Shown here: one piece after another, positions 30,802 through 49,544 of the stretch
Layout: each line of letters begins with the position of its first letter
Numbering within the stretch: position 1 is the first letter of the stretch
Source: a virus
Strand: one strand, 5' to 3'
DNA length: 64,000 bases
IMG/VR virus record: IMGVR_UViG_3300050821_005065
Location: 1-64,000 of that record
Notes under the pieces: generated by a model
The model's input: only the letters and a program-made list of their open reading frames with translations
The model's database searches: none
What the model was told of the DNA's origin: nothing
Translations under genes and position numbers: made by a program

Positions 30802-33800
30802 TTGATCTGGTTCGGGAAACCTGTTCCGCAGAATCGGATGTTGGGACAGGTCGATAGTGACGATCCCACCAACCTTCCGGCTGGTCTCGCCTCGCTTGCC
30901 AAGAACTTTGAGTGGACGCGGGATACAGCCGGGCCAACATGCGCTAACTCTCGCTGCGGTTGCAACACCGCCATGCAATGCCTCGACCATGCCGCGCCTG
31001 TAACTGGCTTGCTCGGCTTTGTCTATTCTCCAGAATCGGCCAGCGATCCGTTCTTTCAACTTCCACTAGCTTTTCAACCGACCGAAGGCTCGCAGTACGA
31101 ATCTCCAGTCGGCACAGGCCGCATGGTAGCCTTCCCGCCGACAAACTTTCAGGAACCATCCCTCGCCAGTCTCGGCGTTCCTCCCCATGTGATATCCGCC
31201 AGCGCAGGGAATCGAGTCTTCCAAGCGTATAGCGACTTGAGTATCCCAGCCGGCGGATTGGCGAACCTTGATCCCAAAGCGAAGACCATGAACCCGTATG
31301 GGATGAAACCAGTCGGATTCTATTGGGTTCCAAACACTCCAGTCTTGCAAGGAGAAATCTGCTGCCCGCCGACTCCGACCACTGGAAACGGCCATACCTA
31401 CCAAGCGCAGAACTCAGGCACCACCGGAGCGAACGCACCTATCTTCCCCACGGGAGAATCCGCGACTGTCAACGACAACGGCATCATCTGGAAAGAAAAT
31501 ACGATGGTGATTGCCAACCGCCTGCCACCTCCCGATGAGGCACAATTCATCGTAATCAATAGCGGCGGAACCATCCCGGCGAACATCCGTGTCTATGCGG
31601 TCATCACATTTCTCAACTCTATCGGTGAGACATTGCCGTCGCTTCCACACTTCATCGCGACCGTGGTCAACAATTCGCAGGTGAAAATCGAGGTGCCGTC
31701 GCTCGCGCAATTGCCCGCATGGATACGAAATCTTCCATCCCAATATGTTCCAACCCAGGCAAATGTCTACGCCCAGGAAACCGGCATCGCCTCACCCGCG
31801 CCAGCACTTTCTACCTATTATCAGCTAGGAGGGTCGGTTGCCCTTGGATCAACTGTTAATTTCGTTCCCGGAAGCGGTACAGCTCCGCCCGTCTCGAATA
31901 CCGCAAGAATTACTCCAGGGCAGTTGCCGACTCCGACCGTTGAACCTGAGATGCAAGTTTCTCCTGCGGGCTCCGTCGTTACTCCTCCCAGCCTGCCTAC
32001 TATTTCCTTGGCGCCCAGCGCGGGAAGCGCATTTACCGCAGGCCAAGTCATCGACGTAGCTTTAACCTTGGTCAACGCGAATGGAGAAACCACCAGAGGC
32101 CCAGCTCCACCGATCAAAATTATCAACAATGGCGATGGCATCTTAGTTTCTTTGGCTGCGAGTTATGGGCCCACGGTGACCGGAGTCAACATCTACCTCT
32201 CGACCAATGGATTTTCCGCTGGGACTGGATCCTTGGAATCCGGTTCGCCGTTTGCGGTGGGATCTGTAACAACGTTGTTAGCTTTTGGGCCGTCCACGAC
32301 ATTGCCGACGACGAACACGGCAACGCTCCCCTTAGGAACGTTCCCTGCAGGCCGTGATGTATACGTCGCGCAAACTTATACCAATGCGAGTGGGGAAACT
32401 CCGCTCGGGCCAGCTAACTTCATCCTCAATACCGCTGCCGACGACTCTATTTTAGTGACGGTCGCGGTTCCACTCGGACCGGACAACGAGCAACTTTACA
32501 CGATCACCAGCGTGGGAATTTATGAAGCGGATGTAGCCACAGGAACTGCTGCGCCAGCGCCATCCGCTTTTGCCTTGGTCGGCTATTACCAACCGGGAAA
32601 TCAGCCTTTCATCTTGAATACAGCAACGGGACCGAATCCGCCCATCACGAATACCACGGGCCCAGGCGGCGCGATTGTGGCGGATACCGCGACTGGGGGA
32701 GCCAACGGAGGGCAAGGCTATCGCTATGCCGCCTTTGGCTGGATCAACCAAATGGAAACTTTCTCTGGCTTCACTCTGGCAAGCGTAGTGAAAACCATCA
32801 TTGATGAAGACGGCTGGGAGATTGGAGCGTTCAACGTCCCCACAGGAATGCCGAATGTAGTTGGGAGATACGTCCCCTTCTCAGGCGCCGACGGATCACA
32901 GGCAGGGCCATTCAACTGGATTGGGTTAGTGAATCTCATTGTCCCCTCACAGAACGTTGTCTTCCCGATGCAGACCTTGATCGACACGGTTCTGCAGAGC
33001 GCCACAGTATTTCTCGACAACGTGACCACGCAGGGAACCTTCAACTTCACCGATACCTATTTGCAGTCGGCTAACAATGTCGATGACCGGTTGCAACTCG
33101 CGATTCCGCCGCAGGGCGTGCGCGTGGATTATCTTGAGAGTGTAGATCGGCTGGCTATCACTGGGGTGCCGGGATTCGCCAGCGGGCCGTGGATCAGCCT
33201 CGCGGAAGACTACGAAAGTTTCTATGGCGCGCTCAGTCCGGTTCCTGTCACCACGACTGGTGAGCGATGTTTCGGAGTGACCGACAAATACAAAGGCATC
33301 GTCTTCGCCTTGATGGAAGAGAGCGGTTTCGTACTCAATGCGAATACCGGAGCCCCGGCAAGCTGGGCCGCAACCCGGCGCTGGCAGGGTATGGGGCCGT
33401 GCGGCTTTCGGGCGTGGGACGCGAACGGCAAATTCATCATCTTCGCGCACCGCTCGGGGCTTTACAAATATGACGAGTCCGACCCCGACATGATGCAGAA
33501 GGAAATCCCGAAACTCTGGTCCACGATCAACTGGGCCGCGGGTGAAACCATCTGCGTCTACATCGACGAAGATACCCATACGGTGCATTGCTTAGCGCCC
33601 ACGGGAGCCAGTACAGTACCCAATCAGGACTTTGTTTTAAGCTATATCGAAGGCTGGAACAATCCGATCCACTTCTCAACCTTCTCGGGAAAAGAAATCT
33701 CGATGGATGCAGCGCGCCGCTGGTCACCGCATGACCGAGCAGCCTTCGTCGTGTTGCGCATGAAACGCACACTGCCACCGGGTGGGAACCAGTTCATTGA

Positions 33801-34296
33801 CGGCCCCACTTTCGAGACGTTGCCGGACTCCAGCTTTCTTTTGACGCAACTCTTATTCGCTTCGAGCGCAAACGATGGCACAGTGCAAGCGCGGACTCCG
33901 GGAATCTTCTCCGACAACGGCGGATACATTGACTGGCAATACGAGACCATGAGTTCTGGAATGATGCAGGCAGTGTGCAAGCCAGAGGGGTTCAACCTGA
34001 ACGCCACGGGATCAGGGGTGATGATCGCTTCGTTTATCGCCAGTCGAGAACAGGTGACCGATGAAGGCGGAGAACAAAAGCTGATTATCGAAGAGGAGGA
34101 AGTCGAAGTCGATCCCATTCCTTTGAGTCCGAAGCAGGTATCTGGGATCACGCGCAAGTGCAATCAGTCGGCGGTGAATGAGTTTTGGAGAATGAGGTTT
34201 CGAGGGGACCGGCAGCCGGGGACGTGGGTGAGTTTGAAGATTGTAACCCCCTATGTAATTCCTGTTACGCCGGGAAGGGATGCCGGGGACCGATGA
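30802..34296 (+). CDS. Tail nozzle (tubular protein B-like) with inserted Ig-like repeats
   Basis: TTG start after a G-rich RBS; beta-propeller-type C-terminal half (GMGPCG...IIFAHRSGLYKYD); three NxxGET repeats. Confidence 0.7.
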   Translation: MIWFGKPVPQNRMLGQVDSDDPTNLPAGLASLAKNFEWTRDTAGPTCANSRCGCNTAMQCLDHAAPVTGLLGFVYSPESASDPFFQLPLAFQPTEGSQYESPVGTGRMVAFPPTNFQEPSLASLGVPPHVISASAGNRVFQAYSDLSIPAGGLANLDPKAKTMNPYGMKPVGFYWVPNTPVLQGEICCPPTPTTGNGHTYQAQNSGTTGANAPIFPTGESATVNDNGIIWKENTMVIANRLPPPDEAQFIVINSGGTIPANIRVYAVITFLNSIGETLPSLPHFIATVVNNSQVKIEVPSLAQLPAWIRNLPSQYVPTQANVYAQETGIASPAPALSTYYQLGGSVALGSTVNFVPGSGTAPPVSNTARITPGQLPTPTVEPEMQVSPAGSVVTPPSLPTISLAPSAGSAFTAGQVIDVALTLVNANGETTRGPAPPIKIINNGDGILVSLAASYGPTVTGVNIYLSTNGFSAGTGSLESGSPFAVGSVTTLLAFGPSTTLPTTNTATLPLGTFPAGRDVYVAQTYTNASGETPLGPANFILNTAADDSILVTVAVPLGPDNEQLYTITSVGIYEADVATGTAAPAPSAFALVGYYQPGNQPFILNTATGPNPPITNTTGPGGAIVADTATGGANGGQGYRYAAFGWINQMETFSGFTLASVVKTIIDEDGWEIGAFNVPTGMPNVVGRYVPFSGADGSQAGPFNWIGLVNLIVPSQNVVFPMQTLIDTVLQSATVFLDNVTTQGTFNFTDTYLQSANNVDDRLQLAIPPQGVRVDYLESVDRLAITGVPGFASGPWISLAEDYESFYGALSPVPVTTTGERCFGVTDKYKGIVFALMEESGFVLNANTGAPASWAATRRWQGMGPCGFRAWDANGKFIIFAHRSGLYKYDESDPDMMQKEIPKLWSTINWAAGETICVYIDEDTHTVHCLAPTGASTVPNQDFVLSYIEGWNNPIHFSTFSGKEISMDAARRWSPHDRAAFVVLRMKRTLPPGGNQFIDGPTFETLPDSSFLLTQLLFASSANDGTVQARTPGIFSDNGGYIDWQYETMSSGMMQAVCKPEGFNLNATGSGVMIASFIASREQVTDEGGEQKLIIEEEEVEVDPIPLSPKQVSGITRKCNQSAVNEFWRMRFRGDRQPGTWVSLKIVTPYVIPVTPGRDAGDR

Positions 34297-34694
34297 GCAA
34301 CCACGCCAACTTGGGATTGATCGTAGAGAGGGAAGAGGCACTTGGCTTCCTCGATACTGATTTCTTTGACGCGGGAAACATAGTCGCAGGGCTTCTTCTG
34401 GTAGAACGGCCACATCTCCAATCGGTGTTGGGAAATAATTGTTTCACCAATGGAGTCAACCTGCCAGATGCCTTCCTTCCCGAGATGGATGACCGTCTGC
34501 TTAACTTCGACACGCTGTATTCCCATGAAATCCCCAACGTGCTTTCCGTCTTCCCAATAGGGAAGACCAGCGAGGGACAGTTCGGGCACAACGATTTCTT
34601 TTGGAAAGAAATAAGTGCGGAACGGCCAAGTTCTTACCGCGGCAGAAGCGGCTACTCCACCGACCAAGGTACGCAGGAAGTTTCTACGATTCAT
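34251..34694 (-). CDS. Twin-arginine-like leader followed by a mosaic of capsid-, nozzle- and portal-like peptides
   Basis: MNRRNFLRTL N-terminus; three ungapped matches to structural proteins encoded in this window (see findings). Confidence 0.7.
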   Translation of the reverse strand: MNRRNFLRTLVGGVAASAAVRTWPFRTYFFPKEIVVPELSLAGLPYWEDGKHVGDFMGIQRVEVKQTVIHLGKEGIWQVDSIGETIISQHRLEMWPFYQKKPCDYVSRVKEISIEEAKCLFPLYDQSQVGVVAHRSPASLPGVTGIT

Positions 34695-34712
34695 GCCGCA
34701 TAGTCTACTCTC

Positions 34713-34982
34713 ATGAGGATCAAGATGCCAAGAGATTTTGTGTTTATTGACTACGCTTACGCTGCTCGTACTGCACTGGCTGTTTGTTATCGGCGAGACC
34801 GCAAAGGCGAGTTAACCATATGTGGCATGATCGAAGAAAGCCGAATGCCAGCTAAGGCGTTCGCGGAGCGCGTACGGCGCGCATTCGGCGATAGCGACTA
34901 CTATATTTCTCCCGCAACCTTTCAAAATGTAGGAAATGGACGATCCGTCGGCGCGATTATTCACGACGCTCTACTCTCATGA
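34713..34982 (+). CDS. Stand-alone truncated terminase nuclease-domain homologue
   Basis: FVFIDYAY...Y.....G...E.RM.A..FA and Q..G.GRSV align with the TerL C-terminal domain encoded at about 47506-47830. Confidence 0.7.
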   Translation: MRIKMPRDFVFIDYAYAARTALAVCYRRDRKGELTICGMIEESRMPAKAFAERVRRAFGDSDYYISPATFQNVGNGRSVGAIIHDALLS

Positions 34983-35818
34983 GTCAAACCATTCAAGGCA
35001 ACCAACTCGCGCTCATCGAAAGCTTCGTCCGCACCTTGGCACCATCTGCCCGAGACGATGCGCGGCAATTGCTGGTCAATCTCTACGACAACCTCACCGC
35101 ACTTTCCCCCGGCGGGAACTTGATCCGTATCGGAGGAGTGCAAGAAAACGCCAGTCAGCCGCCTTCAGGAGTGGTTCATTCCGTCAGTGCAGCCAATGGA
35201 GTCGCCACAGTTAATATCACGAATCCTCCAACACCAGGTGGCACGCAAATCTGGCACCGGATCAGCTATTCCCCACTGAAAAGCTTTACCCAGAACGTGA
35301 CGACGCTGGAGCCGACGACCGCAACCTCCGTGACCATCCCGCAGTCGGGAGTCAGCACGTTTTATCAACTGGAATCTTCCTTCGATAAGAAAACCTGGTC
35401 AAAAGCAACGCTATCCTCGACTGAGACCATTGACGCTGGCTTAGTTGCCTCGCAAGCGATTGAACCCGCCGCAGTGTTCAATCAGAGCAATTTTGCCTTC
35501 GTGAATTCGCAGGCGACTGGATCGGGCGCAACCGTAACCGTGAATGGATCTGGTGGAACCTTTAGCCCTTACACTGCGGTCAAGGGCAATCAAACTTTCC
35601 TGAGACCATCCGCCACGATTGTAGGAGTAGAACTCGGAGCCAATCAGTTTGTGGGCTACGACCCGAAAGCGAAACAGTTTCAACTACTCCCGACTCTCGC
35701 GGGAGTGTTACCTGACAACTTAGAGCCTGTGGGCTATGTGCAAGCGGGAAGCAGCACACCGGGCGGTGGAGGAACGACTGGTGGGAATGGTGGGAGATTG
35801 AGCGCGGTGCAAGTATGA
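34979..35818 (+). CDS. Putative tail-associated structural protein
   Basis: Follows the nozzle; Thr/Ser/Gly-rich, Fn3-like segment, Gly-rich C-terminus. Confidence 0.6.
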   Translation: MSQTIQGNQLALIESFVRTLAPSARDDARQLLVNLYDNLTALSPGGNLIRIGGVQENASQPPSGVVHSVSAANGVATVNITNPPTPGGTQIWHRISYSPLKSFTQNVTTLEPTTATSVTIPQSGVSTFYQLESSFDKKTWSKATLSSTETIDAGLVASQAIEPAAVFNQSNFAFVNSQATGSGATVTVNGSGGTFSPYTAVKGNQTFLRPSATIVGVELGANQFVGYDPKAKQFQLLPTLAGVLPDNLEPVGYVQAGSSTPGGGGTTGGNGGRLSAVQV

Positions 35819-38597: not shown

Positions 38598-41500
38598 TTG
38601 GACGCCGCCCAGCAGTTTACCGACATCCCTAGCGGGTACAAAGTTCTCCCACCCGCCGCGCCTCTGGATCAATTCTCCGACGTTCCAGACGGCTATAAAG
38701 TTCTTCCGCCAAAAGCGCCAACCGCACAGCAATCCTCCGCCGCAATCGGGCGAGTTACCAGTCCGCTATCGCCTGCCCCGATACCACCCGCTTCTCTCCC
38801 GCCATTCTCCTTAGGTGCTCCTCCGTCAACGCCGCGTTCGACCGCAGAGGGCTTGACCACCGAGCAGCAAGAGCGCCGTGCCGGAATGCCACTTGCAATC
38901 CAGCCGGCCAGCGGCAGTTTAGAGAACACTCACCCCGAACAGGTCGTCGCACAACCCCTAACCAATCAGACCCTAGCCACTCCGCCCAAGCCGGCTCCAA
39001 TCGATACCTCGCTTGGGCCGAACGCTCCCTTTACCCCGGAAGAAGTTGCGGCACGCCATCAAGAGAAGCAGGCCGATGAAGCCGCCGATAGTTCCATGCT
39101 GGCAAATTACAGCCGAGCCGTAGAAGCCGGTAGGCGAATGGGATCAAAAGCGGGCGAACAGATTGCAGCCTTGGGGACGCCGATTGAAAAGGGCTATGGG
39201 GATCTGACTGACGAGAACCGCGGAGCCTTTGAGAAAGAGCACCCTGCCGCTGCGGGCATCGGGAAAGCCGCTGGCGGATTCGTGGGCCAGATGGCCGCCG
39301 ACCCGGTTACCTATTTGTTTATGGGGAGTAGCGAACTGGCGCATCCCATGCTCGACCGGATTATCAGTTCGGGATTCCGGTTTGGTCTGGGCGTCCACGC
39401 CGTCAACGCTGCGCGTGATCTGCAAAAGAATTGGAATGATTACACTCCCGAGAAACGGTATGAGGTCGCAACCGAAGCGGGGCTAAGCGGATTGCTGGCT
39501 GCTGGCGCCCACCAGATCAGAGACTTTCTCAAAGGACCGTATGAAGCTTTACCTACTGAGCCGACCGAGCGCGCCGAATCTCTCTTCCGGAATCTGGTCC
39601 ACAAAGCCGGCGGAACCGTGGGAGAAAATCCTACTCTTGAGGAAGCCAACGCCGCATACCGATCCGCGATCGCCAACCTGCACCCAGACGTAAATCCAGA
39701 AGCGGCCGAAGATGCGCGCAACCTGAATGACGCATGGGCCAAGCTGAAGCAGTCGGGGCGTTTCACCGGGAAACAGCGATTCAGTGATGTGCCGGAAGGC
39801 TACAGAATTCTTCCGCCTGCCGCTGGAGCAGAACAGCCCACCGTTCACGCCTCGAACGATGTCGAAGAGCTCCGTGCCTCCGCCGAACGCCAAGCCCCGA
39901 AAATAGGAGATGCGGTTAGTAGCGCCACTGAAGGCGTTCCCGGCACCAAACTGGAAGCCGTGCGCGACTCCAAAGACTCTGACCGAATCACAGATAAAGC
40001 CGAGCGCCAAGGCGTCGAACCTTCCCAGATCAAAGACATTGCCGCGGCGAAGGTCACCGTCCCGGATCAGGAAGCCGCCAATCAGGTATTAGAAAATCTT
40101 CACCCCGAGATGCCCGTTGAGGAAGTCAACGGCATGGTGACAGGGGAACCCGGTAAAAACGCGGTGCGTCAAACGCAAGCCGTCGTATCGACGGATCAAC
40201 CGGGCGAACCTGTCAAGAACGCCGAAGTGCTCTTACAGACGCCGGAGATGCACAAAGCCACGGAAACCACTCATGATGACTACCGTAAAGCTCAGGAACT
40301 ACGCGCTGCGGGTAAAGAAGCCGAAGCCCAGGCTGTCGAAAATCGTATCGCAGGCGAGCACGAAGAGGCCCACCAAGCGGCCATTGCACGACAGGAGGAA
40401 TCAAATGCCATTCAAGAGCGAAGCGCAGAGGGGGTTCATGGAAGCGCACAAGAAGAAGATGGAGGCCAGCGGAGTCAACATGAAAGAGTGGGAGAGCGCC
40501 AGCAAGGGCAAGGATCTTCCGCCGCGCGCCCCCAAGCCGCCCGACAAGAAAAAGAAGAAGCCCCCCGCGCCCCCAAGCCGCCCACCCGAGGAGTTTCAGG
40601 GGCCAATGACCTAACTCATAATCTCAAGAACCAAGCAATTGAGATTCGTGACTCTCAAGGCAACTGGAAGCAAGGCACCGTTCTAGCCGACAGCCTTACC
40701 CAAGGGGGAGATCGGCCACGTCGATTGCGCGGAACCTTCGCCGATGGGACAGAATTCGACAACATCAAACTCTCAGACGTTCGCAGGCCGGAGGTGCAAA
40801 CAGGTTCCGAGGGAATCGACTTCGACGGAACCCTGTTCACCGAGCGTCCCGATGGATCAATCGGCGAACCCATCCCAGAGCGGATCGCAAGCTTAAAAGA
40901 ACGCATTGCCAATGGAGAGGAAGTAGTAATCGAGAGTCACCGAGCGCGTCAACCGGGAGGAGTTTCAGCCATTCAGGACGCGCTGGAGAAAGCAGGTTTG
41001 CCGCGCCTGCCAGTCTCCGCCAAGAAGAACGTAGAACCCACTCTCGTTGACGACGAAAAACAAAACGCTCCGGGAGTCACCCAACAAAAAGTAGCGACGA
41101 ATCGAAATACGCCGTTACCCGATGTGCCGCGCGCCCCACGCCCGCCCAGCTACGGTCCTCCCAAGAAAGATTTTCAAGGCTCCGTCCCTGCGGAGAGTTT
41201 GGGCTTCAATCACACGATCGATACTGGTCCCGACATCGGCGCAAAGGCTCGCGTAGAGACTGAGAAGCGTATGGGTGGGCCTCTCCCCCGTGGGCAGGCA
41301 GAGCGGAGAGCGCCGGAACCCAAGCCCGTTGACACGTCCTCTGAAGCCATCAAAGCCGCCTCCAACCCAGAACGCGATACCGACATCATGGCGAAGCTGA
41401 AAGAGGAGCATCCTGATTGGTCTTTAAGTCAACGGTTACAAGAGGCGGCGAAACTCGCCAATCCCCCCAAGGAGAAGCCCGTTGAAATCTCGTCAAAAGA

Positions 41501-44500
41501 TGTATCGAAGCCTGTACCGCAAGCAAGTGAAGCAGGAAAGAAAGAAACTGTTCAAGTCAATCAGGGTGCTGGAGGCGCTGATAAAGTTGGACCCGGTACT
41601 AAAGGCGAAATAGCTCCGGGTAAAGTCGGCGAAATGAAAGTTGCCGACCTGAAGGTTGCGCCGAACAAATTCCAGTACAAACTTGGCACGGATGCGGCAG
41701 GGACTTCGACTCTTCTCAAAGAGGCGAAGACGTTCAATCCCGATCTGGCAGGAACCATTTCAGTTTGGAAAGACCCCGCGGATGGCAAAACTTATGTGGT
41801 CAACGGTCATCACCGCTATGAACTGGCGAAGCGTACGGGACAGGATGAAGTTGCGGTGCGGCACATCGTCGCGCAGGATGCGGCAGAAGCGCGCGCGGTC
41901 GGAGCTCGGCAGAACATCGCTGAAGGTCGCGGCACTCCTGTGGATGCAGCCAAATTCTTTCGCGATACCAGCATCACCCCCGAAGACCTCGACAAGCACG
42001 GTATCTCGCTCGGCGAAGCTACCGCCGCGAAAGGGCTGGCACTCTCGAACCTTGACGACTCGCTATTCAGCAAAGTGGTAAATGGCGATTTGCGCGAAGG
42101 CCGCGCCGTCGCTATCGGAGAGGCGACCAAAGACCCGGCAGAGCAGAAAGCAATTCTATCGCTGCTTGAACGCAAGGAGCGCATCGGGGCGAAGGTCTCG
42201 GACGATACGCTTTCCGAGTTGATTCGTCTTGTCAAGGGCGCAGAGCAGAAGACAGAGACCACAGCAAACTTATTTGGCACACAGGAAATTAACCGCTCCC
42301 TTGCTCTCGAAAAAGCGGAAATCTCCGCGCACATCAAGCAGCAGTTATCGAAGGATAAAAAGTTGTTTGGGTTTGTCGCGAAGGAGGGGCGCGCGGAGGA
42401 ACTGGCGCGCGCTGGCAACAAGATCGACGTAGAGAAGTCCAAGGAAATATCGACTGGCGCAGCTCAGGCGGAAGAGGTTTATAATAAACTGAGTGCGCGC
42501 GGAGGGCCAATTGCAACCATCCTCGATGAAGCCGCCCGAAAACTCGCCGACCGTGAAGGCTCCCCGGCCTCCATTAAATCCGACGCCTACGAGCGCATCC
42601 GGGAAGAGGTATCCCAAACTCTCAGGGGAACCGAAAGAGAAGTTCCTGAAAGAATGGAAGCGGGAGCAGGACCAAGTAAAGAAGTAGAACCGACGCTCCC
42701 CGGCATGGAGCATGTCCCCGCCGAACGTGCCGAAGCGGTCTCCGAACAACAAGGCAAAGACCTCACCGCCAAACTCACCGAGCCGCCGAAGTCCATCGAA
42801 TCGAAAGCGGGTGAGATTGAGCAACGTTCGCCCCTCTTCCGCGACACGGAAGCGAATCCGCAAAAGGGATTATTCGGCGGCGAATCCGGATCCCTCGACA
42901 TCTCCAAACTTTCCCCCTCTCACATCAAGCAACAGTACGACCAAGCCGTCTCTGAATTCATTTCCGGCAAACTGAAAATCGGCGACAAGTATCACGATGT
43001 TGCCAAGCACGATGAGACCGTAGCCAACACGCTTCACCTGGTAGACAACGCTCCCCGCTATTTCAAAGCCAAAGCCGACGCCAATCTCAAAGGAGTCACC
43101 GCTGGATTAAACGACGATCAGATTCGTCTTGCGTCCATGATGGCCGATTCGGACTCGCGAGACTACCTGAAAGCCAACAAGCCCGATGAGTTCAAGCAAG
43201 CCACCTCCGACCCGGCAGTGATGGCCGCTGTAAAGAAGTTTGAACCGCTCCAGCAGGAACTCACCAAAGACCGTCAAGCGTTGGGCTGGCCTGTCCGCAT
43301 GAGCATGGAAGCCATTGAGCAGCCAGACGGAACTTTCAAAGTAATGGACCGGAGCGGCGCGGACCTAGGCGACTTCAAGACTGCGAAGAAAGCCAACGAG
43401 TTCATTCAGGAGAATGGTGAAGTCGAACCGCATCTGAAGCGCACCTACCCCGAGCACTCGAAGAACCCTCTCCCTGCCGAGACTGGTGTAGGAGATTTCA
43501 CTCAAGCTTTCCCCCACGAAAAAGGCTTACGTCCGCCGAAGATGGACAAGAAGTCCCGCGAAATGTCGGCGGAATATCATTACGAACATGGGCGCAAAGA
43601 TTTCTCTGGCTACACCGAGAGCTTCAAGCAGACCAAAACCGCCGTGCTGAAACAGAAACTCTTTGACGACTTTGTAGACCGGGCAACCCCGTACTCCGCC
43701 GGGACCGCGCAACCTCCCAAGATCGAATACAACGGGAAGACCTACTACCGTCCCGACATCGTGCAGAAAGCCAAAGAAGGTGGAACCAAGCTTGAATCCT
43801 ATGCCATGTATGATCCCACGCGCGGCGAAAAGTTCATGATCGCGAACCCCGAAGAAGGCTGGGCCACACTCGCCACCGGGAAGTCGGGAATCAAAGCCAG
43901 TGACCGATTCCTAGGTCCAAAGCCCGTAGTCGATGCGATGGAGAACTACGACACGTCCCGCGGCGGGGAATCTTCAAAGCTACGCCACTTCTTTCAAGAG
44001 CAGATCGTGGGACTCTTCGGCCCAGTGGTTCACATCAACAACATTGTCCGACGAATCGGGCAGGCAACCGGCATGGGAACATTTGATCCGCGCTCCTGGC
44101 CTTCGATCGCGCGTGTGATTGCCAGTCCAGAACTGAGACAGCGGGTGATGAGTGGAGTTGATGACGCCACCATCGACATGCTCACCAAGTACGGAGCCTA
44201 CACCGACTGGGGCGATATCGGGACGGTCAACAAATATATCGGCGGAAACCTGAATCCGGCATCATGGGTTAGATCCTTTGGTAAAGGTGTTCTGTTCGAT
44301 CCCAAGTTCGCAAAGGGCTGGGGCGGTCTCGATCCGAAAGCGCGCGTAGTGGTCGCGGATTATTTCAAAGAGCACTTCCCGAAGATGACCGACGCCGAAG
44401 TAGCCAAGGCGATCGAAGATGGATTCGGAAATTACAACCGCGCCAACTGGACTGAGCGCCAAAGACTTCTTGCCAAGTTCACTCTTTTCCCCGGCTGGGA

Positions 44501-45431
44501 TGCAGCCTCCGCAAAATGGTTTCTGCGTCATCCCTTCCGCGCCGGCGTGGCCGGTTCGCTCGTAGTCCTTGCCATCAATCGGGCCTTGAATGCTCTCGGG
44601 AAAAACAAAGACCAAGACGCCAACGATCTCAGCTATGTCCACTTCGGCGATAGGAAACTTTCTTCCGGCTTGATCATGGATAACATGGGAAACCACTTCA
44701 TGTCGCCCGTGCTGGGAGCGTTGCAAGCGAAGTTGAGTGGGGATGACGTTGCTGCAGGAGCCACCGAAGGAGCGCAGAGAGGCAGCGCAGCCCTTGCGGG
44801 AACTTTGGCTGGACCCGTGGTCGAAATGGTTGCGGATCAAATCTACAACCGGAAGTATGCTGGCGGAGCCTCGGAACTGGTAAAGCCGGAAGACAAATAC
44901 ACTCCCGGCACCTGGTTGCCGAACGTGGAACTGGAGAAGCGTGCGGCCTTTGCTGCCCTGAAAGGCACACCAGCTCTCAATCGCTTTATCAATCCCAAAG
45001 GGGAATGGGATTGGGCGCAAGGCATCGGCGGCGGAGTGCTCGGCGTCACCAATTACAAGTACGGCGCAGAGGAACGGTTCAAGGCCAACGTCGCCAAAGC
45101 CGCGACCTATGGGCAGACATTGAACCAGCTTGCCATGAAGGAACCCGAAGCCGCGGCCAAGTTCGCCAGCGACCCGCAGCGCGCAACCTACCTGATGTTC
45201 CACGATGACCTTGAGCAGATGGCGCGTGATCTGAAAGAACTGGATTCCCAGATCGAGCGAGTACGCAGCGCGGACCTGCCGCACACCGAACGGCAGAGCA
45301 TTTTGGAAGACCTGAAGAACAACCGCAACACCCTGCTCAAAGCGGCCGATGGATTGAACGACGCCTTAAACGAAGCGAAGAACCAATCTCGCAAGAAGCA
45401 AACGGATTACTGGAAGAGCAAAGTACAATGA
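38598..45431 (+). CDS. Giant polyvalent ejection protein (J-like, RelA/SpoT-like, HAD-like and ParB-like domains)
   Basis: 2277 aa; AYRSAIANLHPDVNP; KDSDRITDK...KDIAAAKV...EVLLQTPEM; IDFDGTLF; VVNGHHRYE. Confidence 0.75.
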   Translation: MDAAQQFTDIPSGYKVLPPAAPLDQFSDVPDGYKVLPPKAPTAQQSSAAIGRVTSPLSPAPIPPASLPPFSLGAPPSTPRSTAEGLTTEQQERRAGMPLAIQPASGSLENTHPEQVVAQPLTNQTLATPPKPAPIDTSLGPNAPFTPEEVAARHQEKQADEAADSSMLANYSRAVEAGRRMGSKAGEQIAALGTPIEKGYGDLTDENRGAFEKEHPAAAGIGKAAGGFVGQMAADPVTYLFMGSSELAHPMLDRIISSGFRFGLGVHAVNAARDLQKNWNDYTPEKRYEVATEAGLSGLLAAGAHQIRDFLKGPYEALPTEPTERAESLFRNLVHKAGGTVGENPTLEEANAAYRSAIANLHPDVNPEAAEDARNLNDAWAKLKQSGRFTGKQRFSDVPEGYRILPPAAGAEQPTVHASNDVEELRASAERQAPKIGDAVSSATEGVPGTKLEAVRDSKDSDRITDKAERQGVEPSQIKDIAAAKVTVPDQEAANQVLENLHPEMPVEEVNGMVTGEPGKNAVRQTQAVVSTDQPGEPVKNAEVLLQTPEMHKATETTHDDYRKAQELRAAGKEAEAQAVENRIAGEHEEAHQAAIARQEESNAIQERSAEGVHGSAQEEDGGQRSQHERVGERQQGQGSSAARPQAARQEKEEAPRAPKPPTRGVSGANDLTHNLKNQAIEIRDSQGNWKQGTVLADSLTQGGDRPRRLRGTFADGTEFDNIKLSDVRRPEVQTGSEGIDFDGTLFTERPDGSIGEPIPERIASLKERIANGEEVVIESHRARQPGGVSAIQDALEKAGLPRLPVSAKKNVEPTLVDDEKQNAPGVTQQKVATNRNTPLPDVPRAPRPPSYGPPKKDFQGSVPAESLGFNHTIDTGPDIGAKARVETEKRMGGPLPRGQAERRAPEPKPVDTSSEAIKAASNPERDTDIMAKLKEEHPDWSLSQRLQEAAKLANPPKEKPVEISSKDVSKPVPQASEAGKKETVQVNQGAGGADKVGPGTKGEIAPGKVGEMKVADLKVAPNKFQYKLGTDAAGTSTLLKEAKTFNPDLAGTISVWKDPADGKTYVVNGHHRYELAKRTGQDEVAVRHIVAQDAAEARAVGARQNIAEGRGTPVDAAKFFRDTSITPEDLDKHGISLGEATAAKGLALSNLDDSLFSKVVNGDLREGRAVAIGEATKDPAEQKAILSLLERKERIGAKVSDDTLSELIRLVKGAEQKTETTANLFGTQEINRSLALEKAEISAHIKQQLSKDKKLFGFVAKEGRAEELARAGNKIDVEKSKEISTGAAQAEEVYNKLSARGGPIATILDEAARKLADREGSPASIKSDAYERIREEVSQTLRGTEREVPERMEAGAGPSKEVEPTLPGMEHVPAERAEAVSEQQGKDLTAKLTEPPKSIESKAGEIEQRSPLFRDTEANPQKGLFGGESGSLDISKLSPSHIKQQYDQAVSEFISGKLKIGDKYHDVAKHDETVANTLHLVDNAPRYFKAKADANLKGVTAGLNDDQIRLASMMADSDSRDYLKANKPDEFKQATSDPAVMAAVKKFEPLQQELTKDRQALGWPVRMSMEAIEQPDGTFKVMDRSGADLGDFKTAKKANEFIQENGEVEPHLKRTYPEHSKNPLPAETGVGDFTQAFPHEKGLRPPKMDKKSREMSAEYHYEHGRKDFSGYTESFKQTKTAVLKQKLFDDFVDRATPYSAGTAQPPKIEYNGKTYYRPDIVQKAKEGGTKLESYAMYDPTRGEKFMIANPEEGWATLATGKSGIKASDRFLGPKPVVDAMENYDTSRGGESSKLRHFFQEQIVGLFGPVVHINNIVRRIGQATGMGTFDPRSWPSIARVIASPELRQRVMSGVDDATIDMLTKYGAYTDWGDIGTVNKYIGGNLNPASWVRSFGKGVLFDPKFAKGWGGLDPKARVVVADYFKEHFPKMTDAEVAKAIEDGFGNYNRANWTERQRLLAKFTLFPGWDAASAKWFLRHPFRAGVAGSLVVLAINRALNALGKNKDQDANDLSYVHFGDRKLSSGLIMDNMGNHFMSPVLGALQAKLSGDDVAAGATEGAQRGSAALAGTLAGPVVEMVADQIYNRKYAGGASELVKPEDKYTPGTWLPNVELEKRAAFAALKGTPALNRFINPKGEWDWAQGIGGGVLGVTNYKYGAEERFKANVAKAATYGQTLNQLAMKEPEAAAKFASDPQRATYLMFHDDLEQMARDLKELDSQIERVRSADLPHTERQSILEDLKNNRNTLLKAADGLNDALNEAKNQSRKKQTDYWKSKVQ
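40405..40614 (+). CDS. Nested out-of-frame small basic protein (MPFKSEAQR type)
   Basis: CAGGAGGAATCAA-ATG RBS inside the giant ORF; 69-aa Lys/Pro-rich product. Confidence 0.6.
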   Translation: MPFKSEAQRGFMEAHKKKMEASGVNMKEWESASKGKDLPPRAPKPPDKKKKKPPAPPSRPPEEFQGPMT

Positions 45432-45952: not shown

Positions 45953-46627
45953 ATGCCCAGCAAGATTGCGTCCCGTCCTGTAGAAGAGAAAGAAAAGTTC
46001 TTTGTCAATCTCTTTATCCGGGAAGGGATGAACCCAGGATCAATCGCAAAATGCGAAAAACGCGCCCACCTGAAGCGGGGAGACGGCAAGAAGATCCTGC
46101 GGCGGAAGTCCGTCAAAGCGGAACTCCAGACGAAAACCGCACCGGCACGCGAGGAAATCTTACGTCAGGAAATCATTGGAGAAGCTGTTGTCAAAGCCAA
46201 GGCTGCCCAGCAGGAAGAACTTGCCAAAGTCGTCAAAAGTATCACTTTCCAAAAACTCAATCGGGAAATTCTCATCGACCAGCTCATGCAAGGGGCAGTC
46301 GGTTTGAACTGGCACATGTACCCCAGCGAGAAATTGGAAGTCATCAAAGCCGCGCTCGTATTGGAGCAAGACTCTAAAACCATCAATGGCTCATCAGAGA
46401 ACACCCCAGGCGTCTATCAAAGCGCCTTCCGCCGCCTAGCCCCTCCCCCGGCATCCCCCATTCTAGAGCCTCCTAAAGCGCAAGAAGGAGTATTCGACCT
46501 CTACCCGGGTAAGACGGTTCCGCCGGTCGAACTGGTTGCCACCCTCCCGCCCATCGGTGAATCTACCGAAGAAGCCCCTGAGAAGCCTTCCTCGAACCCC
46601 AACGTCATCACGGTTGAGATTGGATGA
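45953..46627 (+). CDS. Putative terminase small subunit
   Basis: Immediately upstream of and overlapping terL; basic helical N-terminus. Confidence 0.55.
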   Translation: MPSKIASRPVEEKEKFFVNLFIREGMNPGSIAKCEKRAHLKRGDGKKILRRKSVKAELQTKTAPAREEILRQEIIGEAVVKAKAAQQEELAKVVKSITFQKLNREILIDQLMQGAVGLNWHMYPSEKLEVIKAALVLEQDSKTINGSSENTPGVYQSAFRRLAPPPASPILEPPKAQEGVFDLYPGKTVPPVELVATLPPIGESTEEAPEKPSSNPNVITVEIG

Positions 46628-48252
46628 CGTCGCCGTACCCGCCTCTCCAGCTTCCACCAGAAAATATCGAGCCGATCTGGTGGCCTATCAATTCTGCCCA
46701 GCAAGCCTACCTTAATTGCAAAGCCCAAATCGCAGAATTCGGCGGAGAATCTGGAGGAGGAAAAACCCAGGTACTCGTGGCCGATGCGATGCAGGAACGG
46801 GATAACCCCCGGCTGCGCGGCCTTCTTCTTCGTACCACCCTAGAGGAGATGGCCGAACTGGAGGACATTCAGCAGAAAGTCTACGAACCTTTGGGGGCGC
46901 GGTGGACCCGTAAGCGCTCGATCGCAGCTTGGCGCTTCCCCTCTGGAGCCACCATTCGGCCGGGCTACCTCGCGCACGACAAGCACCTAAAACGCTATCA
47001 AGGCAACCCGTACACATGGCTGGGCATTGATGAAAGCGGGCAGCACCCGGAAAGCCGAATCCGGTTCATGTTGGCATGGCTGACTGCTCCAAAAGACTCT
47101 GGCCTGTTCGCGCGAGCTCGCTTCACCTCCAACCCTGGCGGGGAAGGCCACGGCTGGCAAATGAAAGTCTTCCTGCGAAACCGCTGCCCGGTTCACTATC
47201 CAGCCACATATGCCGACGACAAGCCACTCGAAACCAGTGTCTATCCAGGGAGAGTCTACCGCGGTGCCACTTGGACCGATGATTCGTTCGTTCACAAAAC
47301 CACAGCCTTCATCCCGGCTGGCTTGGCCGATAATCCGCTCTATGGAGAGGACAAGCTCGCCAGCCTCTTAACTCAGTCGAAGGCCATCCAACAGCAACTA
47401 CTCTACGGCTGCTGGTGCAACGCTGCAGGACTTTACTTCGATTTCATGCGGCCGGATATGGTCGTACCGTATGCCTCAATTGGAGACTCCTGGTGGTGGC
47501 AGCATTTTTGGTCGATTGATTATGGATTCGGAAACTCGGCGGCCGCTGCCGGCATGTACGCGATTAACCCCAACGGAGTCGTATTCAAAACTCGTGAGCG
47601 GATTGAACGCAAGATGGCCGCGCTGAAGTTCGCAAAATGCCTCTGTAAAGATGGCTTCTCCGCAGTGGATTATCCCCAGCAAGGCCCGCAAGAAAACTGG
47701 CTGAAGAAACTAAAAGCGCGAGATCCAGAAAATCCCCGCATGAGCTTTGTGGTGATGGACGAAGCGATGGACCAGCACCGCGGCACAGGAAAAAGCATTT
47801 ACGGAGTGATGTCGGAAGTCTTCGCAGAATACGGGCTTGGCTCGATGAAAGCCGCGCACGATCCTGCGGGCAACGCCCAAGTGCTTTACAACGGGCTTGC
47901 GAATAAGTTCTGTGTGCTCACGCGCGACTCCGCCGATCTGCCCCTTAGTTACCGCTCGATCTCCAGCCGAATCGTCGATGAGCGGAAGGCCGTCAAGAAG
48001 ATCCACGGAGCGTGGGAAGATGACAGTTACGACGAAACCTCTTACGCTTACAACACTTGGCGCCAGAACAGCGAGAAGCCGGCGCGCACCGCCCTACAGG
48101 AAGAATTAGCCGATCTGAGAAAACAAGGGCTGGATGAAACCTCACTCGCCCGAATCGCTTGGACCCGAGAGAAGGCCATCAAAGAGAAAGAACAAGAATC
48201 GTCCAAGGGGATCAGGCTTTCCCGGTCTCTCTCCCCTCCAAGGAAACGTTAG
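46624..48252 (+). CDS. terL: Terminase large subunit
   Basis: Walker A GGESGGGKT, Walker B WLGIDE, coupling motif TSNPGG.GHGW, LADNP, nuclease IDYGF and DDSYD. Confidence 0.92.
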   Translation: MTSPYPPLQLPPENIEPIWWPINSAQQAYLNCKAQIAEFGGESGGGKTQVLVADAMQERDNPRLRGLLLRTTLEEMAELEDIQQKVYEPLGARWTRKRSIAAWRFPSGATIRPGYLAHDKHLKRYQGNPYTWLGIDESGQHPESRIRFMLAWLTAPKDSGLFARARFTSNPGGEGHGWQMKVFLRNRCPVHYPATYADDKPLETSVYPGRVYRGATWTDDSFVHKTTAFIPAGLADNPLYGEDKLASLLTQSKAIQQQLLYGCWCNAAGLYFDFMRPDMVVPYASIGDSWWWQHFWSIDYGFGNSAAAAGMYAINPNGVVFKTRERIERKMAALKFAKCLCKDGFSAVDYPQQGPQENWLKKLKARDPENPRMSFVVMDEAMDQHRGTGKSIYGVMSEVFAEYGLGSMKAAHDPAGNAQVLYNGLANKFCVLTRDSADLPLSYRSISSRIVDERKAVKKIHGAWEDDSYDETSYAYNTWRQNSEKPARTALQEELADLRKQGLDETSLARIAWTREKAIKEKEQESSKGIRLSRSLSPPRKR

Positions 48253-48455: not shown

Positions 48456-49544
48456 CTACTTTTTCTCCTCCGGTGCGGCTGTCGAAGACACGGCTTCCAC
48501 GTTGCATCCGTGATTATAACGATGCGACTCCGCCACGCTTGCACCACACTTAGCGCAGGTAAAGCGCGGATCGGTCGAAGACACGGCTTCCGAAGGTTGA
48601 GCGGCCTCGGCTGCGTGCTTGCAATCAGTACAGCTACATATAGCCTCGCAATATTTGCAGACCTTACGGCATAACTCATGCTTGCCGTGTAGGCAGGCGG
48701 TTGAAAGGTAGCTATGCAAGCCAATCTTAACCATTGCTAGTGCGGCTTCCGAAGGAATGGGAGATTCGGCCACGAAATCATGCGTAGGTCCGCCGAATAA
48801 CTTGCTGTGCTCACGCGCCTTCTCGGGCTTTTTACACTTGGCACAGATCGGCGTGGCTGCGGGAGATAGTACGCTACCAACCACTTGCATGACCGCTGCA
48901 ACTGATTCTCGATCCAGCCCTTTCGCCGCTTCAGATAGCTGATCGTAGGGGACCATTAACTCTTCATCGGATTCACTCTTGCGCGACGTAACACCCTGTT
49001 TGACCTTAGACGCTATCCAGTTCTCGTGAACTTTGGCAGCGATGAATTCCAAGTCAGGTTTGGGAAATGGTACTGCTGAGGCTCCGCGCTCCACAGGTCC
49101 GTAGGTATTTCGCGAGAGAATGTATGCAGCCAGCTCTGATACTCTGCGCCACAACAGATGTCCACCTACAAGCAGCCCATTTGTTGTATAGAACTCAGTG
49201 ACCCAATCTTCAATCTGCTCGGGCGTGGGTGCGGCTTGTTCCCGGCTAATCCACTCAACCACCTTACTCTCCGCATCTTCACAGGCTTTATCCATTCCAT
49301 GCATTGATACATAATGACCGCCATCGCGATGGATCACAGCAAGAAGGTTAAGCAAGAGATGATGCTCGTCTGTATGGGGGGCTTGTTCCCGGCTGGCGGC
49401 GTCCAAATGTTCCTGAAGCTCAATTGCCTTGTGCCTCCACCAAGCAGCTGAGTATCCGTAGGGAACCTCAGCTTGTAATCGCGCGATGTCCAATCTCTCT
49501 TCCGCCGTTTGCGCGGCTCCCTTGGCTTGCGACGAGTTGCCCAC
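48456..49544 (-). CDS. Mosaic accessory protein containing an RyR-like domain
   Basis: IAAKVHENW...K...LMVPYDQLSEAAKGLDRESV; short direct repeats between modules. Confidence 0.6.
   Translation of the reverse strand: MGNSSQAKGAAQTAEERLDIARLQAEVPYGYSAAWWRHKAIELQEHLDAASREQAPHTDEHHLLLNLLAVIHRDGGHYVSMHGMDKACEDAESKVVEWISREQAAPTPEQIEDWVTEFYTTNGLLVGGHLLWRRVSELAAYILSRNTYGPVERGASAVPFPKPDLEFIAAKVHENWIASKVKQGVTSRKSESDEELMVPYDQLSEAAKGLDRESVAAVMQVVGSVLSPAATPICAKCKKPEKAREHSKLFGGPTHDFVAESPIPSEAALAMVKIGLHSYLSTACLHGKHELCRKVCKYCEAICSCTDCKHAAEAAQPSEAVSSTDPRFTCAKCGASVAESHRYNHGCNVEAVSSTAAPEEKK

Follow-up and report, generated by a model that had tools for sequence, protein, structure and literature searches.

A putative terminase nuclease half-domain encoded by DNA inserted at the start codon of a conserved gene in an uncultured soil phage

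Morons are accessory genes that are inserted between the conserved genes of a phage. Microproteins work by way of an interaction domain that they have kept, and the half-domain of the nuclease of the large terminase subunit (TerL) is not known as an oligomerisation module. Terminase nucleases as a group are marked by an extended sheet and an auxiliary beta-hairpin, as described in PMC5727402. Direct binding of TerL or portal by Avs1-4 is described in PMC13581612, and in the one case studied in PMC11564622 the predicted contact of TerL with Avs2 is made by the ATPase domain and not by the nuclease domain. No published TerL decoy or inactive TerL paralogue was found in the paper listings and text passages searched.

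The window analysed here is the whole stretch of 64,000 nucleotides at the beginning of virus record IMGVR_UViG_3300050821_005065. It contains a short reading frame, ORF P0001, which an initial annotation had described as a miniature, catalytically incomplete copy of the terminase nuclease domain and had placed about 12 kb from terL; the distance was found to be 11.6 kb. What is new at this locus is an ORF of apparent terL-fragment origin present as a clean insertion that falls on the start codon of the gene following it. The features and their coordinates are summarized in Table 1.

Table 1. Features of the locus and of the terL gene of the same phage
Feature	Coordinates	Strand	Remarks
Conserved 1164-aa structural-region gene	30802..34296	+	
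Reverse cassette, 147-aa ORF P0003	34251..34694	-	Between the 1164-aa gene and ORF P0001
Putative ancestral stop/start junction CCGATGAG	34290..34297	+	At the end of the 1164-aa gene
Left repeat copy (perfect 14-nt direct repeat, TCTACTCTCATGAG)	34704..34717	+	Duplicate of the start region of the 279-aa gene; contains ATG 34713
ORF P0001	34713..34982	+	89 aa from the first ATG; a diverged, truncated copy of part of the TerL nuclease domain
Likely true start of ORF P0001	34715..34727	+	GAGGA 34715-34719, 5 nt, ATG 34725-34727, giving 85 aa
Insert-specific DNA	34718..34969	+	252 nt; with one repeat copy, a 266-bp indel
Right repeat copy	34970..34983	+	Encodes LLS and the stop of ORF P0001; also holds the start codon (ATG) of the 279-aa gene
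Conserved 279-aa gene	34979..35818	+	Homologues in 5 related loci, 53-57% identical
terL	46624..48252	+	542 aa; ORF-homologous part residues 294-400 (nt 47503-47823)

The similarity between ORF P0001 and TerL was analysed at the levels of pairwise alignment and family profile. Recounting of the two ungapped blocks on which the resemblance had been claimed gave the same 12/40 and 5/20 identities, and nt 47515, from which the TerL side of the first block had been numbered, is Ile298 of the protein. The similarity to the TerL of the same phage taken alone is not above chance (BLASTP 16/56 identities, E 0.083; Smith-Waterman score matched by 159 of 2000 shuffles) and is superseded by the profile tests. 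With hhalign, a TerL family alignment of 27 sequences matched the ORF with a probability of 91%, E 9.8e-7 and a score of 47.2, pairing ORF residues 8-87 with TerL 294-400 across one gap of 26 residues. None of 177 shuffled copies of the ORF scored above 21.7 (mean 13.5, sd 2.4), and reversal of the sequence gave 10.1. A TerL-nuclease HMM was also run with --max on every stop-to-stop frame of 30 aa or more in the window, 1271 in all; terL was matched at E 7e-107, ORF P0001 at E 5.9e-5 and the next best frame at E 2.3, making ORF P0001 the sole frame other than terL that the HMM matched. The --max setting was needed to bring it out, and a faster TerL-profile search of the phage genome returned terL alone. 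BLASTP against the TerL of a related phage (P0052) gave 22/63 identities with E 3e-7, and a search of five related virus records with the ORF gave a single match, to the TerL of G003 (E 0.0059). ORF P0001 and TerL are thereby shown to be homologous over the first half of the nuclease domain.

Against 79 TerL segments the identities ranged from 16 to 26 of 89, with 21/89 for the TerL of the same phage. By these alignments the ORF is about 26-35% identical to the TerLs of the phage family and no closer to its own; several of the core residues invariant in TerL are retained. The phage's nearest relatives, by contrast, have TerLs that are 85-89% identical to its own (P0008-P0013). An MPAK motif of the ORF is common to 5 of 83 TerLs and is insufficient for placing its donor in a subclade of TerL.

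The fold of the small protein was predicted from the single sequence with AF2 (pLDDT 64.8, core blocks 77-81). The model showed the order b1-b2-b3-a1-b4-short helix-a2, which is the order of elements in the model of TerL 293-402 up to a2 (in TerL, b1 293-300, b2 307-314, b3 320-328, a1 333-343, b4 372-378 and a2 392-402). The model of the ORF stops before b5, whereas that of TerL includes b5 and additional elements and extends to about residue 482; the ORF model is thus without a complete five-stranded RNase H-like core, an extended sheet or an auxiliary beta-hairpin. A Foldseek search with this model gave D6E TerL as the top PDB match, which is weak (E 8e-3, TMq 0.56), and many TerLs in BFVD. 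The ESM Atlas holds its own model of the ORF (pLDDT 0.77), whose neighbours are terminase fragments and large subunits at TM 0.78-0.80. In an exhaustive structural search, in which all matches lie below the caution level of Z 8, Ppx/GppA and sugar kinases led with Z 6.0-6.6, and T4 gp17 and the E217 TerL nuclease followed at Z 5.1 and 5.0. The profile, HMM and BLASTP matches, together with the shared order of elements, bear out the description of the ORF as a shortened relative of the nuclease domain of TerL.

The resemblance could in principle be convergent or due to chance, the ORF being a generic b-b-b-a-b-a motif of RNase H-like/ASKHA folds with no descent from TerL. Such an origin would agree with the structural ranking, in which Ppx/GppA and sugar kinases lead and TerL is not singled out by structure alone, with the chance-level pairwise match to the phage's own TerL and with the absence of a terminase match in Pfam, where nothing was found for Terminase_6C or Terminase_3C up to E 1 and DAG1 appeared at E 0.11 only. 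The Pfam negative is uninformative, because the genuine TerL of this phage also has no Pfam match; its identity is given by phrog_979 (E 1.7e-29) and by Foldseek, in which the TerL model found D6E TerL (E 2.9e-18) and also the Sf6, T4, HK97, P22 and SPP1 terminases. A chance resemblance is further opposed by the profile and HMM signal, which is specific to the TerL family and far over the shuffles, by the BLASTP match to P0052 and by the position of the two collinear blocks on equivalent secondary-structure elements. An origin outside TerL is therefore regarded as highly improbable.

The catalytic positions were assigned from the hhalign alignment and the invariant columns of the TerL family alignment. 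D13 of the ORF pairs with the invariant D299 of TerL, S66 stands at the position of the invariant D379, and the invariant C-terminal acidic cluster D452, D466, D467 and D470 falls past the end of the ORF. This is in accordance with the earlier statement that the first acidic residue is kept, the second is replaced by serine and the C-terminal acidic motif is missing. Only one of the three acidic metal-binding positions is kept, and the ORF therefore cannot be a nuclease. A surface loop of 26 residues, which lies between a1 and b4 in TerL, is deleted in frame. The packaging ATPase is encoded solely in terL, and ORF P0001 has no N-terminal fusion to an ASCE packaging ATPase. Other packaging candidates of the phage are a putative TerS of 224 aa (45953..46627) and a portal-like region in a protein of 2277 aa.

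Comparison with the related loci revealed an insertion of 266 bp whose position is exactly that of the 279-aa start codon, with duplication of 14 nt of the site. Alignment with G001 and G003 leaves a clean gap of 266 columns whose edges lie on the 14-nt repeats, and ORF P0001 is present in 0/5 related loci (G001, G003, L025, L027 and L028). These relatives were found through TerL and genome searches; a search of viral contigs with the 279-aa protein gave no match. The single site of G001 reads CCTACTCCGATGAG, which indicates that the duplicated 14-mer derives from the target. The two copies are the only exact ones in the window. As a stand-alone statistic the repeat was rejected, since a repeat of this length or longer within 2 kb turns up in 5 of 20 shuffled windows; it is meaningful solely because its copies coincide with the edges of the indel. 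The insert is a single copy in the 72-kb genome and has no terminal inverted repeats at its ends, the sole one being the CTCATGAG palindrome, which lies within the target duplication. A length of 14 nt is long for a duplication made by a transposase, and microhomology-mediated or illegitimate recombination is more likely than transposition as the origin of the insert. The two repeat copies are identical yet the insert is highly diverged, which places the divergence elsewhere. G001 and G003 are closer to each other than either is to the window by consensus, so that one loss in their ancestor is as parsimonious as one gain here. Contigs from two soil runs carry the filled site with both junctions, and the 85-aa protein is also encoded on a second contig of 2583 nt. 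No contig joining across the insert was found, at depths of 2-4 that cannot show the absence of an empty-site variant.

The state of the junction before the insertion is indicated by the relatives. In L025 and L027, which are without both inserts, the stop of the 1164-aa gene and the start of the 279-aa gene overlap as ATGA, and the junction of L028 has the same overlap. The slot between these two genes has also taken a reverse cassette with variable cargo, which in G001 and G003 is flanked on both sides by the 8-mer CCGATGAG. The product of the cassette in the window, P0003, has a homologue in G003 (31/50 identities, E 3e-19) and a twin-arginine-like N-terminus (TAT_signal at E 0.0078, below the Pfam cut-off), and its start is 18 nt from ATG 34713. 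An inverted repeat at 34313-34327 and 34683-34697, 80% complementary, was considered as the terminal repeats of the cassette and set aside, as nothing alike was seen by eye at the ends in G003. The 279-aa gene itself has no family match in Pfam or PHROG, and its earlier designation as a tail gene thus found no backing there.

The translation signals of the ORF were examined in the same manner. The start at ATG 34725 is also that of the database gene call P0004, and the GAGGA motif ahead of it spans the junction between repeat and insert. An in-frame stop lies 9 nt 5' of the first ATG of the 89-aa frame, and the frame ends in its own TGA, which shares the sequence ATGA (34979-34982) with the 279-aa start codon, as noted at first reading. 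GAGGA or AGGAG at 5-8 nt also stands ahead of several other genes of the phage, the ATGA-overlapped genes being without a motif of this class, as are the single-site starts of the 279-aa gene in G001 and G003. A consensus scan of 33800-35600 showed no promoter-like site of the sigma-70 type on the + strand, and terminator-like sites were absent from both strands. Coverage by RNA run X4 is confined to 34300-34427 and by X3 to 35067-35227.

These observations are best accommodated if ORF P0001 is a young captured terL fragment which is translated and feeds ribosomes to the 279-aa gene, a reading to which we assign slightly less than an even chance. The 279-aa gene would ancestrally have been ATGA-coupled directly to the 1164-aa gene, and an earlier reverse-strand cassette would have broken this coupling and left the 279-aa start without a ribosome site. 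The insert, which encodes a strongly diverged copy of the first half of a terL RNase H-like nuclease domain ending after a2, would then have supplied GAGGA-N5-ATG at the junction, and the ORF may be translated in the late structural operon. Since its stop overlaps the next start, terminating ribosomes would pass to the 279-aa gene. Judging from this anatomy, a selected effect of the insert, if any, is most likely exerted in cis on the translation of the 279-aa gene, and the small protein would be a young passenger product with no established packaging role. A length of 266 bp, which far exceeds the need for a ribosome site, counts against a role in cis.

The distribution of the ORF was examined in sequence databases. 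A phmmer search of 1.84 billion representative proteins gave the protein itself and three others, P0005, P0006 and P0007, which are long proteins built of near-identical tandem repeats. Each of them aligned in 3-9 stretches to differing portions of the ORF, and they were judged repeat-inflated artefacts. A word-index protein search gave only the protein itself, and its cluster held just the 85-aa and 89-aa forms. Relatives were absent from the viral contigs and genome contigs searched, and no PHROG and no PDB chain was matched by sequence. Other short TerL-like proteins gave 11 matches, all 56-94% identical to the query, none of which is a diverged mini-copy of TerL; as candidate mini-copies they were rejected, ten lying on contigs no longer than 7.5 kb and the eleventh having no contig record, and they are read as truncated gene calls. 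The occurrence of the ORF in one phage only makes it look like a young captured fragment and not an established regulator.

The composition of the ORF also sets it apart. Its codon usage is atypical and its base composition differs from the surrounding genome, with a GC of 0.506 (0.53-0.59 for the window) and a GC3 of 0.483 against a mean of 0.622 for 14 long phage genes. Its coding score is the top among the six frames, yet it lies under 99% of true-gene windows. The initial annotation had held that the distance from terL and the coupling to the next gene argue against random debris, and this argument was weakened or lost its support: the DNA is a lineage-specific insertion of 266 bp with a target duplication of 14 nt, found in none of the five related loci, without a homologue and with atypical codons. 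The ATGA overlap is a by-product of the duplicated start region of the 279-aa gene and so does not count as separate evidence that the gene is selected.

Neutral debris, that is a divergent terL-like fragment brought in by illegitimate recombination and tolerated in frame with no selected role, is accordingly an explanation to be kept in view, although we judge it rather unlikely. It would account for a singleton with a target duplication and no partner genes, for the weak coding score and for a slot which is a hot spot that had already taken the reverse cassette with its variable cargo. By frame arithmetic, which is an estimate and was not computed, an in-frame start and an ATGA stop would arise in about 1/9 of random native-frame insertions. 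It is harder to reconcile with the change of Asp to Ser and the loop deletion, neither of which was accompanied by the gain of a stop; the former needs two base changes, and the two together imply either that no working TerL served as donor or that evolution after capture proceeded without a stop. A canonical ribosome site at optimal distance from the ORF start also speaks against debris, and an insert between a conserved gene and its start would be selected against if its polar effect were harmful. The divergence of about 70% from every TerL, the frame free of stops and frameshifts, the clean in-frame loop deletion and the confidently predicted compact fold suggest selection at the protein level for most of the history of the sequence. 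Such a past is in keeping with a protein that has a function, in this phage or in a donor not sampled so far, and it also weighs against the reading in cis.

The possibility that the protein acts in trans was weighed on the same data. As a TerL mimic, a nuclease-dead half-domain could regulate cleavage by the terminase, either in a dominant-negative way or in its timing, or could decoy host immune sensors of the Avs1-3 type. The frame has remained open despite about 70% divergence, its in-frame deletion is confined to the a1-b4 surface loop, and a single sequence is enough for a fold prediction of fair confidence. The ORF has a ribosome site of its own, keeps several invariant core residues of TerL and encodes a basic protein (14 K/R against 10 D/E, read from the sequence), and its location in the late operon means that it would be co-produced with TerL. 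The direct binding of TerL or portal by Avs1-4 described in PMC13581612 is also favourable, whereas the single case in PMC11564622, where Avs2 is predicted to contact TerL through the ATPase domain, is not. The restriction to one phage genome, with 0/5 related loci and no homologue in protein or contig searches, and the atypical codon usage weigh against a mimic, and such a role is considered doubtful. Its boldest form, a 'micro-terminase', would be a mobile minimal cassette of a nuclease-dead TerL half-domain which passes from phage to phage, inserts at coupled ATGA junctions with duplication of the target and acts in trans as a mimic, decoying sensors or tuning or poisoning terminase cleavage; this is very unlikely. 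The cleavage affected under that proposal could be that of the phage itself or that of competing phages and satellites.

Should the small protein act in trans, this would mark the first case of a phage encoding a mimic of a terminase domain and would bear directly on how phages escape from or manipulate sensors of the packaging enzyme. In the more modest reading, the fragment of a core phage gene was captured as a new ORF. The edges of the insertion are exact and datable through the 14-nt duplication and the empty sites in relatives, and one junction would thereby present three successive states, namely direct ATGA coupling, the reverse cassette and the new coupled leader ORF. The weakness of the locus is that it has been met once only, in a soil phage that is uncultured; it is a usable case for the birth of genes from fragments and for the way in which phage operons restore translational coupling.

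Among known systems, the TerL nuclease domain (D6E TerL 5oe8, T4 gp17 3cpe, P22 gp2 4dkw, SPP1 G2P 2wbn) shares with ORF P0001 the profile similarity, the order b1-b2-b3-a1-b4-a2 and the first catalytic Asp on b1. The ORF differs in being a stand-alone protein of 85-89 aa that ends before b5 and has lost a loop of 26 residues, and with its second Asp changed to Ser and the third acidic site gone it is no enzymatic member. Like MITE-like elements, the insert is short and has a perfect direct target duplication; it differs from them in having no terminal inverted repeats and in being a single copy in a 72-kb genome. Like morons, ORF P0001 is found in one genome, is missing at the conserved junction in relatives, is atypical in composition and occupies a slot that has accepted other cargo. 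Unlike them, it has no promoter-like or terminator-like site of its own that could be found, and would be read in an operon with translational coupling, and the source of its cargo is a core phage gene, not a host-type one. Its likeness to truncated-paralogue microproteins and dominant-negative fragments lies in its being likewise a small domain, here a half-domain, derived from a larger multi-domain enzyme that is encoded alongside it.

The 89-residue protein reported in the initial annotation was recovered as a plus-strand open reading frame (ORF), and its TGA overlaps the ATG of the following 279-aa gene (ATGA), in agreement with the coupling described there. The public gene call of this ORF begins at Met5 (34725, 85 aa). 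A canonical ribosome site is present before it, with GAGGA placed 5 nt before ATG 34725, and the same motif class and spacing occur ahead of several other genes of the phage. The two ungapped blocks said to align with the large terminase (TerL) of the phage were counted on both sequences and are exact (12/40 and 5/20 identities). The TerL partner is a genuine large terminase by its PHROG match; its alignment-based model (pLDDT 78.6) gave D6E TerL as the best Foldseek result (E 2.9e-18), followed by the Sf6, T4, HK97 and PhiV-1 terminases and the isolated nuclease domains of P22 and SPP1.

Coordinates of the ORF, its neighbours and the recognisable genes
Feature	Position	Strand	Remarks
TerL-like ORF	34713..34982	+	89 aa
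1164-aa gene	30802..34296	+	
279-aa gene	34979..35818	+	
Reverse 147-aa ORF	34251-34694 (window); 2338-2652 (locus L024)	- (window); + (in locus)	starts MNRRNFL...AASAAVRTWPF; inside structural operon
GroEL-like chaperonin, phage-encoded	691..2430	+	phrog_5725, E 2.5e-118
'Virion structural protein' piece	within 4053..8102	+	PHROG match
2277-aa ORF	38598..45431	+	portal-like segment, residues 988-1316; phrog_21, E 1.2e-69
terL	46624..48252	+	phrog_979, E 1.7e-29, on ATPase part

The source virus record has 72,157 bp with direct terminal repeats and is rated 100% complete, and the window covers its bases 1-64000 with a GC content of 0.53-0.59. Most large plus-strand genes, including most other large ORFs of the structural region, have no PHROG family. 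The region is present in two soil metagenome runs. The 2277-aa ORF also has a weak phosphoheptose-isomerase-like piece, and the 126-aa ORF after it (45457-45837, +) matches the isomerase-like PHROG too. At 48481-48806 there is a cluster of exact direct repeats, with lengths of 18 nt (spacing 93) and 13 nt (spacings 159 and 893), which suggests internal repeats of the 362-aa ORF 48456..49544 (-) beside terL.

Compared with its own TerL alone, the ORF stayed at chance level (BLASTP E 0.083; Smith-Waterman score reached by 159/2000 shuffles). For a family profile, 83 TerL nuclease-region relatives were gathered, of which 27 spanning 42-89% identity and free of inteins were aligned. The hhalign comparison of this 27-sequence profile with the ORF gave a probability of 91% (E 9.8e-7, score 47.2), pairing ORF residues 8-87 with TerL 294-400 across a single gap of 26 residues, while no score among 177 shuffled ORF sequences exceeded 21.7 (mean 13.5, sd 2.4) and reversal of the sequence gave 10.1. 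The ORF is closer to other TerLs of the family than to its own (Smith-Waterman up to 75 vs 36), and BLASTP against the TerL of a related phage (P0052) gave 22/63 identities with E 3e-7. In an unbiased scan with a nuclease-domain HMM, which covered every stop-to-stop frame of 30 aa or more in the window (1271 in total), terL ranked first and the ORF frame second (E 5.9e-5), the next best having E 2.3. Identities to 79 TerLs were 16-26/89, a divergence of ~70% from every TerL. Judged on these sequence comparisons, the similarity to the TerL family exceeds chance, and the ORF is of TerL ancestry. The TerL relatives were recovered from metagenomes, of soil and other sources, one cluster being named by the source as a Terriglobales MAG protein. 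Several of them, among these P0042, P0043, P0057, P0059 and P0060, have 686-917 aa and carry precomputed intein/homing-endonuclease Pfam domains (PF14528, PF14890, PF13403, PF07591), which indicates that terL of this lineage was repeatedly invaded by inteins; terL of the window is without them.

The single-sequence AF2 model of the ORF was moderate (pLDDT 64.8; core blocks 77-81) and contained the elements E9-15, E20-28, E34-43, H47-58, E62-66, H69-73 and H79-88. These match the series of the TerL model (E293-300, E307-314, E320-328, H333-343, E372-378, H380-383, H392-402) and stop before b5, with which TerL continues, along with further elements, so the ORF amounts to the first half of the domain, from which the surface loop between a1 and b4 is missing. 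In the Foldseek check proposed in the initial annotation, D6E TerL was the top PDB result, but the match was weak (E 8e-3, TMq 0.56). The BFVD results include numerous terminases and also some small phage proteins that are uncharacterised. The ESM Atlas holds the ORF sequence with its own model (pLDDT 0.77), whose neighbours are either fragments or large subunits of terminases (TM 0.78-0.80). An exhaustive structural search placed Ppx/GppA and sugar-kinase (ASKHA) domains on top (Z 6.0-6.6), whereas T4 gp17 scored Z 5.1 and the E217 TerL nuclease Z 5.0; TerL was not singled out, and all these Z scores lie under the level that excludes a common arrangement. The predicted structure points to an RNase H-like/ASKHA-type b-b-b-a-b-a motif, and the TerL identity comes from the sequence profiles. 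An origin of the ORF outside TerL, to which the structural ranking and the chance-level match with its own TerL would correspond, is highly improbable in view of the profile and HMM results.

The catalytic state was compared using family-invariant columns and the hhalign alignment. The first acidic residue is kept, D13 of the ORF corresponding to invariant D299 on b1; the second is lost, with S66 at the position of invariant D379 at the end of b4; and the C-terminal acidic motif is absent, since invariant D452, D466, D467 and D470 lie beyond the ORF end. The putative metal-binding residues of TerL are taken here from conservation together with what is known of other terminases. With these acidic positions missing, the ORF product presumably cannot be a two-metal nuclease, in line with the earlier expectation that it is unlikely to cut DNA. 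The auxiliary hairpin and extended sheet of terminase nucleases are also absent from the ORF. These elements set terminase nucleases apart (PMC5727402).

A perfect 14-nt direct repeat TCTACTCTCATGAG is present at 34704-34717 and 34970-34983, and no further copy with up to 2 mismatches was found window-wide. The 279-aa gene occurs in two related virus records (G001 and G003) at 54-57% identity, and their alignment with the window showed a clean 266-column gap with its edges on the two repeats. G001 has only one copy of the site, CCTACTCCGATGAG, thus the duplicated sequence is target DNA and not cargo, and the ORF arrived by insertion with target duplication. A repeat of at least 14 nt within 2 kb also appeared in 5/20 shuffles and is not rare across 64 kb; the weight of the repeat rests on its coincidence with the indel edges. 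The insert is single-copy, and no terminal inverted repeats of it were found. The ORF was present in 0/5 relatives, namely the two virus records and three metagenome-contig loci; a fourth locus (L026) duplicates the G003 contig and was not counted. Exact matches to both filled-site junctions were found in contigs from two soil runs, each belonging to a different study; one of the runs may be the source sample. The duplicated target includes an 8-nt palindrome CTCATGAG (34710-34717 and 34976-34983); the homologous site of the relatives, CCGATGAG, is not palindromic.

In two metagenome loci (L025, L027) an ATGA stop/start overlap joins the 1164-aa gene to the 279-aa gene, and a 1.8-kb contig (L028) has the same junction sequence. 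In L028 (1-1794) the reading frame of the 1164-aa homologue shifts between 915 and 982, and the homologue of the 279-aa gene ends at 149 aa, which may reflect a sequencing error or decay of the copy. An opposite-strand cassette separates the two genes in G001, G003 and the window; it is flanked on both sides by the 8-mer CCGATGAG in G001 and G003, and the left copy of the 8-mer is intact in the window at 34290-34297. The 147-aa reverse ORF has a twin-arginine-like N-terminus (Pfam TAT_signal E 0.0078, below cut-off) and is conserved in G003 (31/50 identities, E 3e-19), while G001 has a different ORF in this place; the cassette resembles an accessory slot in reverse orientation whose cargo varies. 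The reverse gene starts 18 nt from the ATG of the 279-aa gene in G003 and 18 nt from ATG 34713 in the window. These spacings and the junction states of the relatives give the order direct coupling, reverse cassette and then, in the window lineage only, TerL-like ORF. As G001 and G003 are mutually more alike than either is to the window, a single loss in their ancestor is compatible with parsimony alone. The repeat copies are identical in the window, whereas relatives differ from one another at this site in 3 to 5/14 positions, which points to a recent gain, or else to strong constraint acting on the two copies. A promoter-like site, by consensus match only (TTGGCA, 18 nt, TAGACT; 9/12), lies at 34702-34731 (-) just upstream of the reverse ORF start, and its -35 hexamer falls inside the insert; the insertion may also have altered transcription of the reverse gene.

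That the ORF is pure neutral debris is considered unlikely. Against a gene, its coding score is under 99% of 329 true-gene windows, yet above 98% of 1645 off-frame windows; its GC3 is 0.483 vs 0.622 for the genes of the phage; and no homologues were found in the protein collections, viral and genome contigs, related virus records and short TerL-like proteins searched. Against debris, its frame scores highest of the six by codon log-likelihood (0.016; runner-up -0.213), it stayed open despite the divergence from every TerL, the sole length change is the in-frame loss of a surface loop, the ribosome site is canonical, and two single-sequence predictors give the product a compact fold. The insert is highly diverged whereas the repeats flanking it are identical, which indicates that the divergence arose elsewhere, in a donor absent from databases. 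The product as a trans-acting TerL mimic or regulator, as the initial annotation had proposed, is improbable. The preferred though tentative reading is that ORF translation feeds the 279-aa gene in cis and the peptide is a passenger. The ORF would be translated in the late operon, its ribosomes would pass on to the 279-aa gene, and this hand-over would restore the coupled layout destroyed by the reverse cassette. No ribosome-site motif was seen at the start of the 279-aa gene in G001 and G003.

The observation of the ORF, made in a single genome, is well verified and its insertion history is informative; the functional role is put forward as a proposal. Its proposed mode of action has no demonstrated counterpart, and in the literature searched neither a TerL decoy nor an inactive TerL nuclease fragment standing alone was found. 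The ESM Atlas contains clusters of proteins 75-90 aa long that are in part annotated as Terminase_3C or Terminase_6C, so short terminase-like ORFs exist in databases, as real genes or truncated calls. Compared with the TerL nuclease domain, the ORF is a fragment by descent that lacks four of the six features tested (complete core fold, acidic triad, hairpin with extended sheet, ATPase fusion). Its composition and its presence/absence pattern are those of a moron; unlike morons, however, it showed neither a promoter nor a terminator belonging to it in the site scan. From transposons the insert differs in being without terminal inverted repeats and other copies, whereas it resembles them in the duplication of its target.
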